64,000 nt of DNA, from the IMG/VR virus record IMGVR_UViG_3300032007_000014, one strand, 5' to 3'. The notes under the pieces were generated by a model. That model did not search any database and had not been told where the DNA came from. It worked only from the letters and a program-made list of their open reading frames with translations. Position numbers and translations under genes: made by a program. Shown here piece after piece: positions 3,921 through 41,102 of this stretch. The stretch is from a virus (lineage: Duplodnaviria; Caudoviricetes). How positions within the stretch are numbered: the stretch's first letter is position 1; each line of letters opens with the position of its first letter.

Positions 3921-3971
3921 TTATTTGCCGATCCCGCCACCAAATCCGATGAGAATTGCTACAACGTTCAT
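3921..3971 (-). CDS. 16-aa hydrophobic peptide MNVVAILIGFGGGIGK
   Basis: AAGGAGGT RBS directly upstream, early promoter at 4003-4010, terminator at 3810-3843. Confidence 0.6.
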   Translation of the reverse strand: MNVVAILIGFGGGIGK

Positions 3972-4002
3972 AGCACCTCCTTATCGGTTTGGTTCTACAT
4001 TT

Positions 4003-4010
4003 GTAATATA
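4003..4010 (-). promoter_or_regulatory. early (virion RNAP) promoter TATATTAC
   Basis: Matches phiKZ early promoter consensus; recurs upstream of early genes. Confidence 0.65.
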
Positions 4011-4038: not shown

Positions 4039-4989
4039 TCATTTCTTATTCTTCTGGATCGCTCTCATGAGATCAATCAGTTCTGAGAAGTATTTGTCCA
4101 TCCACGCAATGCGTGTTGCAACAATCACAAGACCTGATTTGGTGAACTCATAGATCTGATTCTGTGAACTCATCTGTTCCTGAAGTTCAGTCACAACTGC
4201 AGAACTTGCATTGTTACTGATGTTCTTCTCGATCTTGCTTTTCAGCTCTTTCGATTTGTCAAGAACATATTTGTTCAGCTGTTTCAGAGTGGTGGAATCG
4301 TGAGTCGTTGTTAACAGCTCACCAACTGTCGTGTACATCTTGTCGTAATCCCACCCAAGTGCTTTAAGCACTCCAGTTGCTTCCAACGTGGTGAGATCAA
4401 CAATGTTGACGAGTTGAAGGGTATTCTCAATCCTGCAACCAAGTTCAACTTCGCAGTTTGCGAAGAGTTTGTTCGCATGACTGAATTCAACAACTCGTGT
4501 ACTCGACTGAAGAATCAAAACAAGTTTCTTCACTTGTTCGTTGAAACTGTGGAAATCGTTGTAACGAATTGTCAACATTGTGGAGTTGGCAAATTCCTCA
4601 CGCATCTTTTCATCAACGAACTGAAGAATGAATGCTTGTTGTGCGACGAGTTTGCGTTGTGCTCTGAAGTAGATATCGAAGATCAATCTGAACAGATGAA
4701 CGATCTGTTCAATAACCCAAGTGATTGCATTCATCAGACCTTTGAGAATGGCCTTCAGTGAATCACCAATTGGGTTCTTGATCTCGATGAGTGCTTCAGT
4801 GGAAATGATACCTGCTTTTGAGATGTCCTCCAAATAGCACTCAACAGACACCGGAAGTGTCTGTCGATCCATATCAGCAGAGCATGCATTGAACAAAGCA
4901 CAGCCTCGTTCATACAATTTGATCGCACAAGAAAGCTGATCATTCGTATCCAGGAACTCCTGGTAAAGTTGTTCGACTGTCATGATCAA
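4039..4989 (-). CDS. phiKZ-like internal head protein paralog
   Basis: ISTE-A site followed by amphipathic helix. Confidence 0.55.
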   Translation of the reverse strand: MIMTVEQLYQEFLDTNDQLSCAIKLYERGCALFNACSADMDRQTLPVSVECYLEDISKAGIISTEALIEIKNPIGDSLKAILKGLMNAITWVIEQIVHLFRLIFDIYFRAQRKLVAQQAFILQFVDEKMREEFANSTMLTIRYNDFHSFNEQVKKLVLILQSSTRVVEFSHANKLFANCEVELGCRIENTLQLVNIVDLTTLEATGVLKALGWDYDKMYTTVGELLTTTHDSTTLKQLNKYVLDKSKELKSKIEKNISNNASSAVVTELQEQMSSQNQIYEFTKSGLVIVATRIAWMDKYFSELIDLMRAIQKNKK

Positions 4990-5918
4990 GCCTCCCTACA
5001 GCATCCAACTTCATTACATTCTTCACTCTTCTTCATCTTTCTCTTTTCGATGAGACGAAGATGAATGAGAAGGTAGCGAAACTCTGGTGTATCTTCCGGA
5101 ACTTGTTTGTAGGATCTTGCATAATAATCTCTCCAATCATTCTTGGATTTGAGATCATCGAGATCCATTGCAACGATAGCATCCGGGCTGAACGTACTGT
5201 ATTTCACAGCCCTGTTCACCAGGTACTTGTATTCCGGAGAATTACAACGTTCCGTGTGAGTCAAGTGGGAAGTCCATTTGACAATATTGCTCACATCGAA
5301 TGTGTTCATTGTTGGATTGACATAAACACTCAGAAGCATGATGTTGCAAAGTGTATCGATGTTGTTGATGATCGTTTGTTCATCAGCATCCCAGAACTTG
5401 ATAGATTCCAGGAATGTGTACTGAAGTTCGTAGATTTTCCAAACTTCAGACATGGGGATCGAAACACTTACACGAGGTCTGTGTCTCCAACATGCTTCAG
5501 CCTCTTCATGAGAAGAGATGAGAGAACTTGCAAGTCCTGAAATCATCTCTGCCAACATCTTGGATGTTGCAAACTGAATGGAGTTCTTTGGAATTCCTTG
5601 CAGTGCTGCAGCAAAAGAAGGAGTTGACTTACAGAATCCATCCCCGTAGTTACGGTTCTGGATTCTGATAAGACAACTTTTCCAAGCATCAAGAAGATAT
5701 TTCTTGACATATGGTTCGTACAGTTTCTTGATCCTGGGAAAATCATCACATGCTTTGCAGCATTCTGCTGCTGACCTGTATTCCGCAGGACCCATGAAAC
5801 TGTCTTGATAAGTGTTGACAGAGTACACGCTTAATGCACCATCATCGACGATGAATTTGCATTTACGCATGACTTCAATCAAAGCAAGATCTCTGATAAT
5901 ACATTCTGGATCGAACAT
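4986..5918 (-). CDS. hypothetical protein (310 aa)
   Basis: Long ORF with AAGGAGG RBS in the head operon. Confidence 0.7.
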   Translation of the reverse strand: MFDPECIIRDLALIEVMRKCKFIVDDGALSVYSVNTYQDSFMGPAEYRSAAECCKACDDFPRIKKLYEPYVKKYLLDAWKSCLIRIQNRNYGDGFCKSTPSFAAALQGIPKNSIQFATSKMLAEMISGLASSLISSHEEAEACWRHRPRVSVSIPMSEVWKIYELQYTFLESIKFWDADEQTIINNIDTLCNIMLLSVYVNPTMNTFDVSNIVKWTSHLTHTERCNSPEYKYLVNRAVKYSTFSPDAIVAMDLDDLKSKNDWRDYYARSYKQVPEDTPEFRYLLIHLRLIEKRKMKKSEECNEVGCCREA

Positions 5919-25496: not shown

Positions 25497-25634
25497 TGTG
25501 TACCTCCATTGTGTTATTTTTTACGTGACTTGATCATCTAATACAAGAGATGATTGCCTACAAGTCACACGACTTCACGTGAGTAATATATAGACATTTT
25601 CTTATAAACTACACCCAACAACAAGGAGTTCAAC

Positions 25635-35636: not shown

Positions 35637-36014
35637 CTAATGCGTTCAGATATGTTCGCTATACATATCCCGGAATTACATCCAGCTCTACATCACTGTA
35701 GATGTACAGACTATATCAACACCAGTTAAAAGGTGGATACCTTTTCGGTTCGCTTGAACCTACAGGGCGACAAACCCCATTAGTCGTTGGACACATCCTG
35801 TATCACAGGACTTCGTACCTGGTTGGGCATTGTATTGACCTTTAGCACTCTTTCGAGCTTTTATTTCAGCATGGGTCATCTCATTTATTTTTTCTACTTT
35901 CGTAACCATCACGCTTATCTTTTGGATTACGTTGTGGTTAAATGAGCTTTAGCCTTTTCCAGAGTTTAGGTATCTTTACAACCACCATCTTTCGATGATA
36001 GCGGACTATAGTTA
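35637..36014 (-). ncRNA. group I intron, subgroup IA2, 378 nt, no homing endonuclease
   Basis: P1 with U.G at 5' splice site, terminal G, P3 GATACCT/AGGTATC, P7 GACTA/TAGTC, P7.1/P7.2, P8, P9 GNRA; splicing restores DD|GKR. Confidence 0.92.
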
Positions 36015-39000
36015 ATCGTCGTTAGTAACGCCTGGCATGATCAAAGAGTTCAACGACAGCATGTTCTCTGGTTCGAGTTTGTCAGGATCCGGCGCAACCG
36101 CCATACCACGAACATTGGAGATCAGTGGGTTAAATGGAAGAGTTGCATTCAAACCAACCTTTCCATTATCAACGGTTGCTTCACTCACAACTCCAAGACT
36201 GTCTTTGGTAAATTGACGATCTGGAATCATGAATGTCTCAGCACTGCGTCCACCTGAACCAGCGTTAGAGAACTTGCTGTATGCTTTGATGTCGTCAATT
36301 GGGTTGAGAATGTTGACATTCTCCATCAACTGTTCTTCCATGATGCGCTGCTTGATGGTGTAGTCACTCATGGAGAATTTGTTGGTCGCACCAATTGATT
36401 TGTGTTTGTATGTCGCAAATGCACGAGCCATCTCGTTGTAGATGATACCTGTCATCTGTTCAACACCACGGAACCTGAAGTTCGTTGCAGAAGCAGCAGG
36501 TTTGTGATCACGTGTTGTCAACATGGATGTTGCACGAATGACAAGATCTCTTACATTCGTGGGTTCTCTCATCTCACGAAGGATGTCTCGTGTAATAGGA
36601 TCGATGAACAAATCAAAGAAGTCGTCGATACCTTTGATGTTGTTGATGGAGAGTTTCTTCTGTTGGAGCAGATCGTAGTAGATATCCTTCCCATCCATGT
36701 CTTCATAAAGAACATTGGAAAGATCGAAATCATTCAGACCTGCAAACAACAGTGCGTTCACAGCAGGTACTCGTCCGATCACCAACCTCTTATCGGAGAA
36801 CTTGATCACAATGTCCGATGTGTTGTTATGCTGACGCGTGCCAGCATCTTGCAGATCATAAGTAACATTGCAATAGTTCAGCATGTTGGTCAATCCATAC
36901 CGATATGCAAGAGCGAAGATAACGGGAACTGCTTTGTTGAGGATGTGCAATTCCACAAACTCATCGATTGGTCCGATCGAACTCAATGTACTTATCTCAA
37001 TCAGAGTATCAATGAGAGCACTTGTCTCGTAATCAGTTGGATTCTTCATGTTCACACGTGACACCATGCCATCTGCTTTGATGAAGTAACAGAAGGTATC
37101 ACTTGCGAAAATACGAGTTGCAAAGAAAGTTCCGTATTTGTTCTCAAGTTCAGCATACTGACTTGTGAATTCCTTTGGGAACAGACTTTCTCTCTTGTCA
37201 TACTCAAGATAGATTTCGGTATCATTGAGTTTGACGTACTCATACTTGGTTCCGATAGAGGTGTATTCATATGACAGAGGTCTGGTTGGATAGTTGCACT
37301 TTCCAATCTTTGTCTGCACAGTAATTCCGGCATCTTTGGATTTGCTGAGCAACTTGCCGAACCAAGACATGAAGTCATGTGCAACATTCGTGTTCCTCTC
37401 AACAATGACTTTGTTGAAGTTGGAGTTAAGAGTTACACGAATGGGAGACACCTTGCAGATCGGATTGGATACACGCTGTTTGGTCATGGCTTTCAACGAA
37501 CCATTGACTTTGGCACGACCTTTATCATCCACCTTCGGTATCGTGAACTTGATCCGATGTGTCTTGTGCTTGGTGTCTTCGTATGTTGCTGTGATGGTAC
37601 GAAGTTCGTTCAATTCATCGATACTGACTTCATCCTTCACATCTGTAAGGAACATTCCTTGTTTGTTGAAGGACGTAAGGATGTTACCGATGTCTCGATC
37701 CATTGCTTTCTTGACATAGGTTGCATCAAGTTCGGCAATGGATGATGCTGTATCTGGACGATCATCCTTATCCACATCTGCAACTGCAGCATCTACCTTG
37801 TCATCTTCGAGTTTATCATCGATTTTCTTGGTGACTTCGGCAAGGGATTTTCCACCGATCTGAAGAGTCTTGTATTTACGACTCATCTCTTTTGCACGTT
37901 CTTTCTGTGCGGGGGAGAGATCTGGTGTTTCTTCGATTGCTTTATCCGCTGCTTTGTCGAGTTCTTCTTCATCCACTTTTGCAGCTTCTTCCAACTCATC
38001 TGTTGTCATGGGTTGGTCGAAAGTAGGAGCATTGGGTTCTGTTTGTTTCTCATCAACGGTGACGAGTTTCTCAGCAACCACGGGTGGTTCAGTAGGAGAT
38101 TCTTCTTCGATACCATCCATCTCTTGTTCAACAACACGATGTCCGTTTGCTGCAAGCAAGTTGACATGTGCGATAATACGAAGCAATGCTGAATTTGCAG
38201 CACCATTCATCTCCTTGAGATCGCGGAGATTGTGGATGATAAAGTAATCTCCAGCTGTGAAGATGAAGTTGATCTTCTCATACAGTCTCGGAGGAACCAT
38301 CTCAAAGATAGAGGTGGTATAAGGAACTTCATCTCCGAACCCTTCCAACGCCGCGATAGGATCGGCATCGATTGCAAAGTTGGCGAGATTGGTGAAGAAG
38401 TCACCTGGATCAAGGTCTGGATCAAATCCTTCGAGAGACATATCCATACCTTCTTCCGATGCTTCAACTGGTTCAAGGATTTCGCCACGTTTCGGAAGAT
38501 CGACCTTCTTTGCAAGGATAGCGTAATAGTGTGCAAGGAAGATGTAGGTGGACACTTCTGGATAGACCATAGAGACCTTGTCCATCTTCTTGAACACACG
38601 AATAAAGTCCTGTTTGCTGAACTGAAGATTTCCAATGGGAATATGAATGTAATGATCCAGTTCAGGAATGCGGTTGATCGTGTTGATGATGTTTGCCAGT
38701 ATTACAGCAACCTGACGCATCCTCCTTCTCAGACCAACGATACGTGCTCTGAACAGAGCATTGTAGTTGATGACAGGTTGAGTGGATGGACGAACAGGGA
38801 TTTGTGTTGGATCTGGATAGAACATCACGTTCGGCATAAGGTCACGCTTGTAATTTGCAAGAGCAACCTGAACACCTGTAAGCGTATAGATCATACCAGA
38901 ATAATCTGGTTGAATCAGATCTGTTGGAAGTGCAGGACGAGGTCCAGTCACGTGATAGACAAACTTCTTGTAATTGTTAATATTCAAGAGTTTGTTATCC

Positions 39001-39164
39001 AGACGTGGAACCATTCTCAGAGGACCATCTGAGTTGAAGTTATCCAAGATGTGAAGACAGGAATTCAAAGGGAATTCTTTGAGGTCACTGATCCTGAATA
39101 CTTCTTTGAAGCGAGAGACTCGCATCGTCTCATACCTGAGACGAAATTGGGCGTGTCTGAGCAT
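36015..39164 (-). CDS. virion RNA polymerase beta subunit (phiKZ gp178-like), exon 1
   Basis: KQRVSNPICK, RFRGVE, GSGGRS, SEATVDNGKVG; SLE-G/ALE-G processing sites. Confidence 0.85.
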
Positions 39165-39266: not shown

Positions 39267-39491
39267 TTACTCCGCGATTGCTTCGTCCGGAACTGTTGCG
39301 TCAACGGCCAAGCCGATACCAACGACAACAGCAACAACCGCTCCAACAACTGCTGTGATTCCGAGAATCGCGTGCAGACACTCCGTCCGTTTGCGCTTCT
39401 CTTCTTCGAGCTTATTGGCTTCGTTGACCATGTCTTGAATGACGCTGTCATTGACACGATTGTTACGATCGTAATTTCTCTCACAGAACAT
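39267..39491 (-). CDS. small early membrane protein (74 aa)
   Basis: AAGGAGGT RBS, one TM helix, promoter 39532-39539. Confidence 0.7.
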   Translation of the reverse strand: MFCERNYDRNNRVNDSVIQDMVNEANKLEEEKRKRTECLHAILGITAVVGAVVAVVVGIGLAVDATVPDEAIAE

Positions 39492-39570
39492 AACTACCTC
39501 CTTATGGTTTTGTTGTTCAATGTTCACGTTGGTAATTTATATTCGAAAGTGAATGGAATACAATTTTGAC

Positions 39571-39704
39571 AAAAAAGAAACCACCGTCACCTGTGGTTGT
39601 CTGCGGGACCTGTGTCTCGGTCGGATCCGCATAGTTTCACACCCAAGGACACGGTGTGCTGAGCGCCAGAGAAGATGTGCGATATCTTCAATGAACTCAC
39701 CTGT
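39571..39704 (-). ncRNA. candidate structured small RNA of unknown family
   Basis: Own early promoter (39705-39712), three hairpins plus terminator, no strong RBS or contained ORF. Confidence 0.6.
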
Positions 39705-39799
39705 GTAATATATACCCATTCGTCTATGAGATACACTGTGTAATATCTTGCAATGATACGATGTATTATAGAACTCAAACAAACATAAGGAATAATACC

Positions 39800-40063
39800 A
39801 TGGGTGAAGAGAACAAGAAAGAAGAAAAGACCTTCTGGCAAAAGGCAGGACACGTGTCATTGATAACCCTGAAACTTGCAGGCATTGCTGCATACGGGAT
39901 CGTATGTCATATGCTTAAATGGGAACCAGATGGTTCTCCTCCAGAAAAGCATGTCGATCCAGATGCTGAGCTGAAGAGAAAAGGATATGAAAAGACAGGT
40001 GTCGAAGTCTGGTATGACGATGACGGTTGCAGAAGAGAAAAAGAAATTTGGAGCAAAAAATAA
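39800..40063 (+). CDS. small membrane protein
   Basis: AAGGA RBS before MGEENK; one hydrophobic segment. Confidence 0.55.
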   Translation: MGEENKKEEKTFWQKAGHVSLITLKLAGIAAYGIVCHMLKWEPDGSPPEKHVDPDAELKRKGYEKTGVEVWYDDDGCRREKEIWSKK

Positions 40064-40106
40064 AAGGCAACTGCCGACTCGTGAGAGCCGGCAGTGCCAA
40101 TCATTT

Positions 40107-40379
40107 TTATTCACCGATGTTCGCGAATCTTTCGTTGATTTCTCGCGCCCATTCACGAGCGGCTCTGTATTTGCGCACAATGCTGATACCACCGGTGATG
40201 GTGGTGAAAGCATAGAACGCGTAGACGAGCATGACGCCAACGAACGCGATCCATCCGCAGTTCAGTGTGCTCAATCCGTAATGGTAGTCCACGATGGCGA
40301 TGATTGCCGGCGGCATGTACCAGACGATGCAAGCGATGAGAACTTTGACGATGGTGAGACGGACGACTTGGTTTTCCAT
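40107..40379 (-). CDS. small early membrane protein (2 TM)
   Basis: AAGGAGGT RBS, promoter 40427-40434. Confidence 0.7.
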   Translation of the reverse strand: MENQVVRLTIVKVLIACIVWYMPPAIIAIVDYHYGLSTLNCGWIAFVGVMLVYAFYAFTTITGGISIVRKYRAAREWAREINERFANIGE

Positions 40380-40535
40380 TTTGTACCTCCTTGTTTGGTT
40401 AATGGATTTGTTGTTCGTTCATGCGGGTAATATATGTCCATTCATCATTGAAGTACATGAATGTATTCGAAACATTTTCACATCTAAATCATTTGCGTGC
40501 TTTTACAACCATTTTAAAACTTTAGGAGGTACAAC

Positions 40536-41102
40536 ATGGTTAAGCATCTTAAATGGATGTGTAGAGATCTGATGATTCAGGCTACATTCTGGTCAACTCT
40601 ACTTTTCTCAATATCACATCCACACACCCACAAGTATCTTGTTAGCAATATCAATGCTAACATGATGGCAATCCAAGGTGTCATGACTTCAGTCATGATT
40701 ATCATCAGCAACTCATCATTCAACAAATGGGGTGACAAAATCTTCAAGTATTTTCCACACATGTGCATAGCTGAGATCATTGCATACGGGTTCGCACTGA
40801 CTGCTGTTGGATTTGGATATATTTCACCAACACTCTACATTCTCATTGATATTTTTGCATACGGATGCATCACACGCAACATGATCTGTTCTGGTAACAG
40901 ATTGCGTAGAATCATCTACAAAAATGAGATTAGAGAACGGTATGACAACAGCGCTCCGATCGCGAACTCTGCCGCGTGTATTATTGGTGGGCTTCTTGCA
41001 CTTATCCCATTCCCAGATTGGTTGCCATGGATTGTTATGATCTGCGGTATTTCAGTGGACAATGTATTCTACCTGATAATATACAAAAGAGCAGTGAAAT
41101 AA
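40536..41102 (+). CDS. multi-pass membrane protein
   Basis: AGGAGGT RBS; ~5-6 hydrophobic segments. Confidence 0.65.
   Translation: MVKHLKWMCRDLMIQATFWSTLLFSISHPHTHKYLVSNINANMMAIQGVMTSVMIIISNSSFNKWGDKIFKYFPHMCIAEIIAYGFALTAVGFGYISPTLYILIDIFAYGCITRNMICSGNRLRRIIYKNEIRERYDNSAPIANSAACIIGGLLALIPFPDWLPWIVMICGISVDNVFYLIIYKRAVK

Follow-up and report, generated by a model that had tools for sequence, protein, structure and literature searches.

Does a transcription unit that has an early promoter and a terminator but no evident gene between them specify an RNA with a function of its own? This question is raised by positions 39571-39712 (minus strand) of a 64,000-nucleotide stretch of the viral record IMGVR_UViG_3300032007_000014, the whole of which is referred to here as the window, and in which a first-pass annotation proposed a structured, immediate-early RNA of about 135 nt. 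The window is part of a phiKZ-like rumen jumbo phage: a virion-type RNA polymerase beta subunit (RNAP) of 1050 aa is encoded at 36012-39164, the phage encodes a PhuZ tubulin, assemblies identical to the window span 236-238 kb, and the sequencing runs containing the stretch are mainly bovine gut metagenomes. A tentative rubrerythrin-based clue to the host points to Bacillota or Verrucomicrobiota clusters, at only ~40% identity. We conclude with high confidence that the unit sits in a variable early region of this phage, and that the locus is a ~330-nt non-coding RNA gene under purifying selection with a covariation-supported fold, of which the window carries a deletion allele with three hairpins (H1-H3) and a rebuilt terminator.

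Architecture of the unit and its surroundings

The unit and its neighbours are arranged as follows.

40434-40107, minus strand: upstream cassette of promoter, RBS, ORF and terminator
39800-40063, plus strand: divergent 87-aa orphan gene, whose homolog marks the syntenic site in a sister species
39705-39712, minus strand: early promoter box TATATTAC, invariant in all strains
39660-39699, minus strand: hairpin H1, whose loop (39683-39677) has a potential 6-bp pairing partner in the full RNA, the loop of H4
39638-39658, minus strand: hairpin H2, whose loop (39652-39648) is complementary to the H3 loop
39602-39631, minus strand: hairpin H3, with an internal loop; loop bases 39616-39612 are complementary to the H2 loop
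39583-39601, minus strand: deletion junction, with private changes at 39599, 39597 and 39594 and CGGT microhomology at 39586-39583
39571-39598, minus strand: intrinsic terminator, rebuilt from a new 5′ arm and the ancestral 3′ arm and U-tract
39267-39539, minus strand: downstream cassette of promoter, RBS, ORF and terminator, with its own promoter variant (39539-39532) and RBS (39502-39496)
39491-39267, minus strand: 74-aa orphan ORF of the downstream cassette

The unit had been placed in a run of minus-strand cassettes; the two flanking cassettes (40434-40107 and 39539-39267) are of that kind, but the run is interrupted by the plus-strand 87-aa gene at 39800-40063. The promoter assignment at 39705-39712 is borne out, with seven copies of TATATTAC in the window versus 0.43 expected, and we take the box to be the phiKZ-type virion-RNAP promoter. 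Among 42 promoters of this phage group that have an RBS, 31 have T at +6 after the box and 30 have G at +7, and in phiKZ the box lies ~11 nt upstream of the transcription start; from this TG and this spacing we infer that transcription of the unit starts near G39698. It follows that the first copy of an octamer reported to recur at the 5′ end and in the terminator loop is largely promoter spacer; the second was created by a T>A change at 39594, and although both copies exist the repetition is incidental. A second, imperfect promoter-like box (39740-39746, minus strand) lies 35 nt upstream of the RNA promoter and is conserved in all strains.

As first described, the unit has no AGGAGG-type RBS and no ORF that ends ahead of the terminator, its 31-aa internal ATG frame running across it, and it is GC-rich (55.5%, versus 31.8% and 31.6% in the flanks). 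Depending on the strain, this internal frame is 31, 65, 68 or 70 aa long with differing C-termini, and it is disrupted by 1-2-nt indels between strains. We found no conserved frame with an RBS that could represent a protein-coding or leader-peptide gene, and none is called in any of the assemblies. A role as leader or attenuator for the 74-aa gene was also considered and discarded, since a separate promoter variant precedes that gene.

The surrounding region is variable. The accessory genes at 39267-41102 form a mosaic of alleles, with 58-97% DNA identity where the RNAP of the strains is 95-97% identical, which points to frequent recombination, and the accessory ORFs neighbouring the RNA unit are mostly just 58-73% identical between strains. 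The RNAP beta gene is itself split by a 378-nt ORF-less group I intron (35637-36014, minus strand; RF00028, 52.6 bits), which is present in strain L030 and absent from L027, where the RNAP gene is an intact 1437 aa; L025 and L026 have different group I introns at almost the same site of the gene. Early promoters elsewhere in the window precede a ~65-nt hairpin-like leader in front of an RBS (25502-25590, minus strand; also in L033), which is a possible regulatory 5′UTR, and a strong RBS with a 16-aa hydrophobic ORF adjoining the head-protein cluster (3955-4010, minus strand). A mini-ORF cassette similar to the latter recurs in two distant relatives (G001 at 219068 and G003 at 111760, both minus strand).

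The long form and the deletion allele

Contigs retrieved through the neighbouring RNAP and 74-aa genes carry an ORF-less unit of 337-339 nt at the same site (L027-L029, L033, L034 and L276-L280), bounded by the window's promoter and terminator 3′ arm. They provide five distinct full sequences from several studies, in strains whose RNAP is 99% identical to that of the window. The proposal of a self-contained ~135-nt unit does not survive this comparison, as the window consists of the 5′ 122 nt of the long unit fused to its last 15 nt. Missing are 203-205 nt between two imperfect direct repeats with CGGT common to both sides, a segment that comprises most of hairpin H4, hairpins H5-H8 and the original terminator's 5′ arm.

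The junction has a distinctive composition. Three private substitutions (39599, 39597 and 39594) fall within six bases, versus one in the preceding 104 nt, and two of them convert U-U mismatches to A-U pairs in the terminator stem. The resulting terminator has a predicted stability of -8.3 to -8.8 kcal/mol, versus -2.4 to -5.5 kcal/mol for a clean deletion and -12.5 kcal/mol for the ancestral structure. The same short junction is present in three other assemblies (L035-L037; two from ENA and one from Logan), which have no difference from the window over 5,489 bases and may share samples. Because the clustered changes rebuilt the terminator stem, and an assembler is unlikely to invent such bases, we regard the short allele, on these sequence comparisons, as a biological deletion. 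That it is an assembly artefact is hardly credible: the junction does lie between imperfect direct repeats that could have been collapsed, and the short-allele assemblies are all identical and possibly from shared samples, but the junction is the same in the window, the two ENA assemblies and the Logan assembly, sequencing runs X1 and X2 contain all sampled words of the stretch, and the junction bases that perfect the stem are absent from either repeat at that position. Template switching can create and repair RNA stems (PMC8794818), and the pattern at the junction suggests this mechanism; the terminator may have been restored in a single such event, or kept by selection against read-through.

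The long form is also present in an RNA library. A 295-nt contig of the sheep-gut metatranscriptome X24 matches 39583-39690 and then continues as the long form, covering positions 15-309 and bridging the window's deletion junction; its extent, from just past the inferred start as far as where the terminator begins, fits the predicted transcript. This is one contig from one run, and contigs show neither strand, ends nor level and may derive from DNA. Its depth of 33.6, versus 2.5 and 3.1 for neighbouring contigs, is not an expression ranking, and in RNA runs X4, X21 and X22 the neighbours are covered with no contig over the RNA, a gap among filtered contigs that proves nothing either way. The phage probably transcribes the full RNA at the start of infection.

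The distribution of the RNA is narrow. A sister species whose RNAP is 77% identical has a homolog of the 87-aa gene (40% identity, E 5e-18) at 118-120 bp from the RNAP gene, as opposed to 847 bp in the window's phage; there, this site therefore lacks both the RNA and the 74-aa cassette. BLASTn with the short and long forms found no homolog in 50,697 cultured phage records and none in plasmids, and five DNA patterns searched in IMG/VR and one in GTDB genomes gave chance hits alone on inspection. A covariance model (R1) matched nothing in four IMG/VR relatives (RNAP 42-49% identical) or in the RNAP flanks of the sister species; with five near-identical sequences behind R1 (effective number 0.8), the lack of matches is no proof that the RNA is absent. 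ORF-less promoter units of three relatives (G001, G003 and G004), surveyed by hand, yielded no homolog, and a literature search found no publication on such an RNA. By its distribution, the RNA appears to behave as a lineage-specific accessory cassette.

Related phages have other ORF-less loci. There are tmRNA genes in L025 (5674-6081) and L311 (1501-1999), both on the minus strand (97.4 and 71.2 bits), that of L025 having an unusually long tag peptide of 20 aa. Close to it are ~800 and 580 nt without a called gene (L025:7123-7918, which is GC-rich and helix-like, and 5096-5674), neither of which matches R1 or gives an Rfam hit at E<=1. In G001 (C1:82963-84858, in L289, minus strand) a 1.9-kb ORF-less tract adjoining tRNA-Pro contains several sets of group I P/Q/R/S-like motifs that Rfam misses at its gathering threshold, and possibly represents introns, nested or in tandem, of a tRNA-like gene. 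In G003 (C1:137182-144380, in L283) the surroundings of tRNA-Asn, upstream of the RNAP gene, have several long stretches (up to 2.6 kb) with no ORF of 110 aa or more, a candidate ncRNA cluster.

Selection and structure

Hairpins H1, H2 and H3 and the terminator (39598-39571) can be read in the window as originally drawn, and the 5-bp complementarity between the H2 and H3 loops is present in the sequence. The further statement that almost all of the unit can pair carries little weight, as the 134-nt form is barely more stable than chance: 22 of 200 shuffles are equally stable (z -1.05), and 14 of 300 in a second shuffle test (z -1.87). In its predicted minimum-energy fold the terminator pairing displaces H2 (H2 probability 0.05); in silico co-transcriptional folding forms H1, H2 and H3 up to 110 nt. 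Across strains, all nine pairs of H3 and five of the six of H2 are invariant, the terminal pair of H2 being broken in L027.

The full RNA gives a clearer signal. Its divergence between strains is 5.1-8.7%, whereas four-fold sites in the RNAP gene next to it diverge by 14.7-18.8% (p 1e-5 to 6e-3), and the long forms fold at z -2.6 to -4.8 relative to shuffles. With the proposed structure of 99 pairs, 99.4% of cells are paired over the five sequences, and 36-47% in slid controls. Five pairs are double-compensatory (two in H4 and three in H6), a number reached in none of 500 shuffles; these counts come from five closely related sequences, from which the structure was itself derived. The three double changes in H6 are confined to one lineage and could be a single template-switch event (PMC8794818). 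One-sided changes produce 11 G-U versus 2 A-C pair types, an excess that indicates selection on the transcribed RNA strand, not on a DNA cruciform. A further helix (175-181/271-277) was dropped from the structure because L277 and L278 lose its 5′ strand. Covariation, which had been proposed as a check of H2, H3 and their loop pairing, is seen in H4 and H6 of the full RNA, whereas H3 and the H2/H3 loop pairing are invariant in the five sequences. All of the double-compensatory covariation is in helices that the window has lost. The hairpin loops of the full RNA are likewise invariant across strains, which is what a bound surface would lead one to expect.

The long form adds a second loop-loop complementarity, of 6 bp between H1 and H4, to the 5-bp H2/H3 contact, and two such disjoint complementarities are found in none of 300 shuffles of L033 and none of 100 of L279. 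Both contacts are invariant in all five sequences, and covariation is accordingly silent on them. There is also an alternative, a long-range closing helix between positions ~8-30 and 262-284 of the full RNA that is incompatible with H1; in L033 and L279 the two folds differ by no more than 1 kcal/mol, and in L027, L277 and L278 the helix is favoured by 4-10 kcal/mol. Where the long-range form wins, the H1/H4 kiss would not form. As the modelled folds are near in energy, or the long-range helix is preferred, a co-transcriptional switch between the two is possible. The window allele, which lacks the H4 loop, can form neither the H1/H4 contact nor the long-range helix. It is probably impaired, either a hypomorph or a null.

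Possible functions and known systems

The best explanation, although we hold it tentatively and at somewhat less than an even chance, is that this is an early, pseudoknotted, trans-acting RNA that serves as a decoy or in counter-defence by binding a host protein. The virion RNA polymerase would transcribe it immediately after injection, and it would fold compactly and with pseudoknots, through the H1/H4 and H2/H3 loop contacts or through the long 5′-3′ closing helix. It would then bind a host protein in trans and neutralise it, on the model of the pseudo-ToxI or Racr decoys; the likeliest target would be a defence effector or a regulator that binds RNA. Such an RNA would be an accessory element that pays off on some hosts and can be spared on others, which would explain both its absence from this site in the sister species and the survival of a lineage lacking 60% of it. 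The decoy reading fits best in view of the early promoter, the accessory position, the invariant loops, the tolerated loss and the lack of a catalytic or coding signature; counting against it, Rfam reveals no likeness to a known antitoxin or CRISPR repeat. A wider reading, which we regard as doubtful, is that the RNA stands for a class of RNA effectors not described before, which would be immediate-early, doubly pseudoknotted and possibly two-state, and which nucleus-forming jumbo phages would carry as exchangeable promoter-RNA-terminator cassettes that disarm a host defence or regulator. If this were true, the window allele would be a natural domain truncation showing which half is needed.

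It is unlikely that the full RNA is instead a base-pairing sRNA, acting in a mode like that of RNAIII or RoxS, whose C-rich single strands block the RBSs of host or phage mRNAs and whose seeds are lost in the window. The main seed would be an invariant anti-Shine-Dalgarno-like stretch at positions 162-171; the invariant UCUCCUU linker and the C-rich H5 and H7 loops agree with this, UCCC is mildly enriched in L033 (10/500 shuffles), and the best partner in the 64-kb window is the gene that starts at 4983 (minus strand), whose RBS would pair in a 13-bp duplex of -20.4 kcal/mol. When the anti-SD core is fixed, however, shuffled flanks do as well in 24 of 200 cases for L033 and 4 of 200 for L277, the other eight single-stranded segments have no target better than shuffles in the 64 kb of phage scanned, and the enrichment of UCC and UCCC is inconsistent across strains.

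Nearest to the original proposal is the notion that H1-H3 with the H2/H3 kissing loop are the working core, the 134-nt allele being a functional minimal RNA and the 3′ 200 nt expendable, which we judge distinctly unlikely. It would account for the restored terminator, for the dominance of the short allele in the complete 238-kb assembly, and for positions 7-104 carrying one private change in the window and differing from other strains at 2-5 of 98 sites versus 12-18% synonymous divergence, and it agrees with the co-transcriptional formation of the three hairpins noted above. The deletion may simply be recent, however; it takes with it the partner of the H1 loop and the two helices that covary, misfolding of H2 into the terminator is predicted for the short RNA, and the allele is seen in identical assemblies alone, perhaps from one or two samples.

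A self-assembling structural RNA, whose loops pair between molecules into rings or cages as in ROOL, GOLLD or the phi29 pRNA, is quite improbable. The two loop-loop complementarities would suit it, but they could equally pair within one molecule, and the RNA is about half the size of ROOL (659 nt), has no Rfam match, and has no tRNA in the window or flanking loci.

Very improbable is a ribozyme or the decayed core of a group I intron, a variant of the first-pass suggestion of a ribozyme. On sequence inspection H3 resembles P4/P5 and GACU and AGUCU segments could form a P7-like helix, in a genome rich in group I introns and with a true one 3.6 kb away, yet the would-be P7 segment and the candidate R segment are tied up in H4, a hairpin that covaries, J6/7 is too short, and neither the R nor the S consensus motif is present; Rfam, which scores the neighbouring intron at 52.6 bits, finds nothing here at E<10, no self-cleaving or other ribozyme family is matched, and there is no hammerhead core.

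The expectation of novelty holds against Rfam 15, in which no family matches above its gathering score; the best scores are 19.4 bits for the short form and 23.3 bits, on the terminator, for the long form, and the L277 and L279 long forms have no hit at E<=1. RF00028 matches the nearby intron and not this RNA, a pattern search for the RNase P CR-I/CR-V and SRP helix-8 motifs was negative with no Rfam hit, and the ROOL and GOLLD models gave no hit. ARAGORN and RF00023 are negative for this RNA and positive in relatives; the UUCGA in the H8 loop of L033, a potential T-arm element, is not conserved in L027, L277 or L279, and there is no resume-like motif for a tag frame, the frames being broken by indels between strains. 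Within Rfam's own families there was no CRISPR-repeat or ToxI hit.

The proposal of an early, ORF-less, structured phage RNA gene outside Rfam is therefore supported, with the amendment that the gene is ~330 nt long and the window holds a deletion allele. It is a real, undescribed phage RNA gene of narrow range, and the stretch that was flagged is a truncated allele, a caution that an orphan RNA read from a single genome can be a deletion remnant. The RNA is a discrete, conserved and covariation-supported gene under a promoter of the earliest class, and is packaged in the same way as the cassettes for accessory proteins that surround it; its natural long and short alleles are a ready pair for comparing structure and function. 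If its action is to neutralise a host protein, takeover of the host and counter-defence would gain an RNA route.

Among known systems, tmRNA (found in L025, G002 and G004) shares with this RNA its size, several possible pseudoknots and a possible long 5′-3′ helix, but the RNA described here has no acceptor stem, conserved T-arm or conserved tag frame. S. aureus RNAIII and RsaE/RoxS are reportedly base-pairing sRNAs with C-rich loops; they too have multiple hairpins and C-rich unpaired stretches complementary to SD sequences, whereas this RNA is phage-encoded, has no sequence or model match to them, and has candidate targets only. ROOL and GOLLD, the former first found in the rumen, are likewise phage-borne, multi-helix, dispensable and with kissing-loop potential, but at 659 and >800 nt are larger than the RNA here (337-339 nt), which lies outside a tRNA island (10.1101/2024.12.08.627333).

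The phage decoy RNAs include pseudo-ToxI of phiTE (PMC3475682), the Racr RNA anti-CRISPRs (PMC10651486) and rAcrIIA1 (10.64898/2026.06.03.729762). They share with this RNA the character of a phage-encoded accessory ncRNA, plausibly acting early on a host protein, and differ in that they mimic a recognisable host RNA (an antitoxin repeat, a CRISPR repeat or a guide RNA). Jumbo phages do make non-coding RNAs, to which the reports cited here assign no tested function, and those of phiKZ and 201phi2-1 are also short, ORF-less, promoter-to-terminator transcripts of phiKZ-like phages (PMC10914365, PMC11512511, PMC8244752). They are mostly 5′UTR-derived and <250 nt long, whereas the RNA here is a free-standing cassette of ~330 nt with covarying helices and possible pseudoknots; it is nonetheless to these uncharacterised small RNAs of phiKZ and 201phi2-1 that it is closest in kind.
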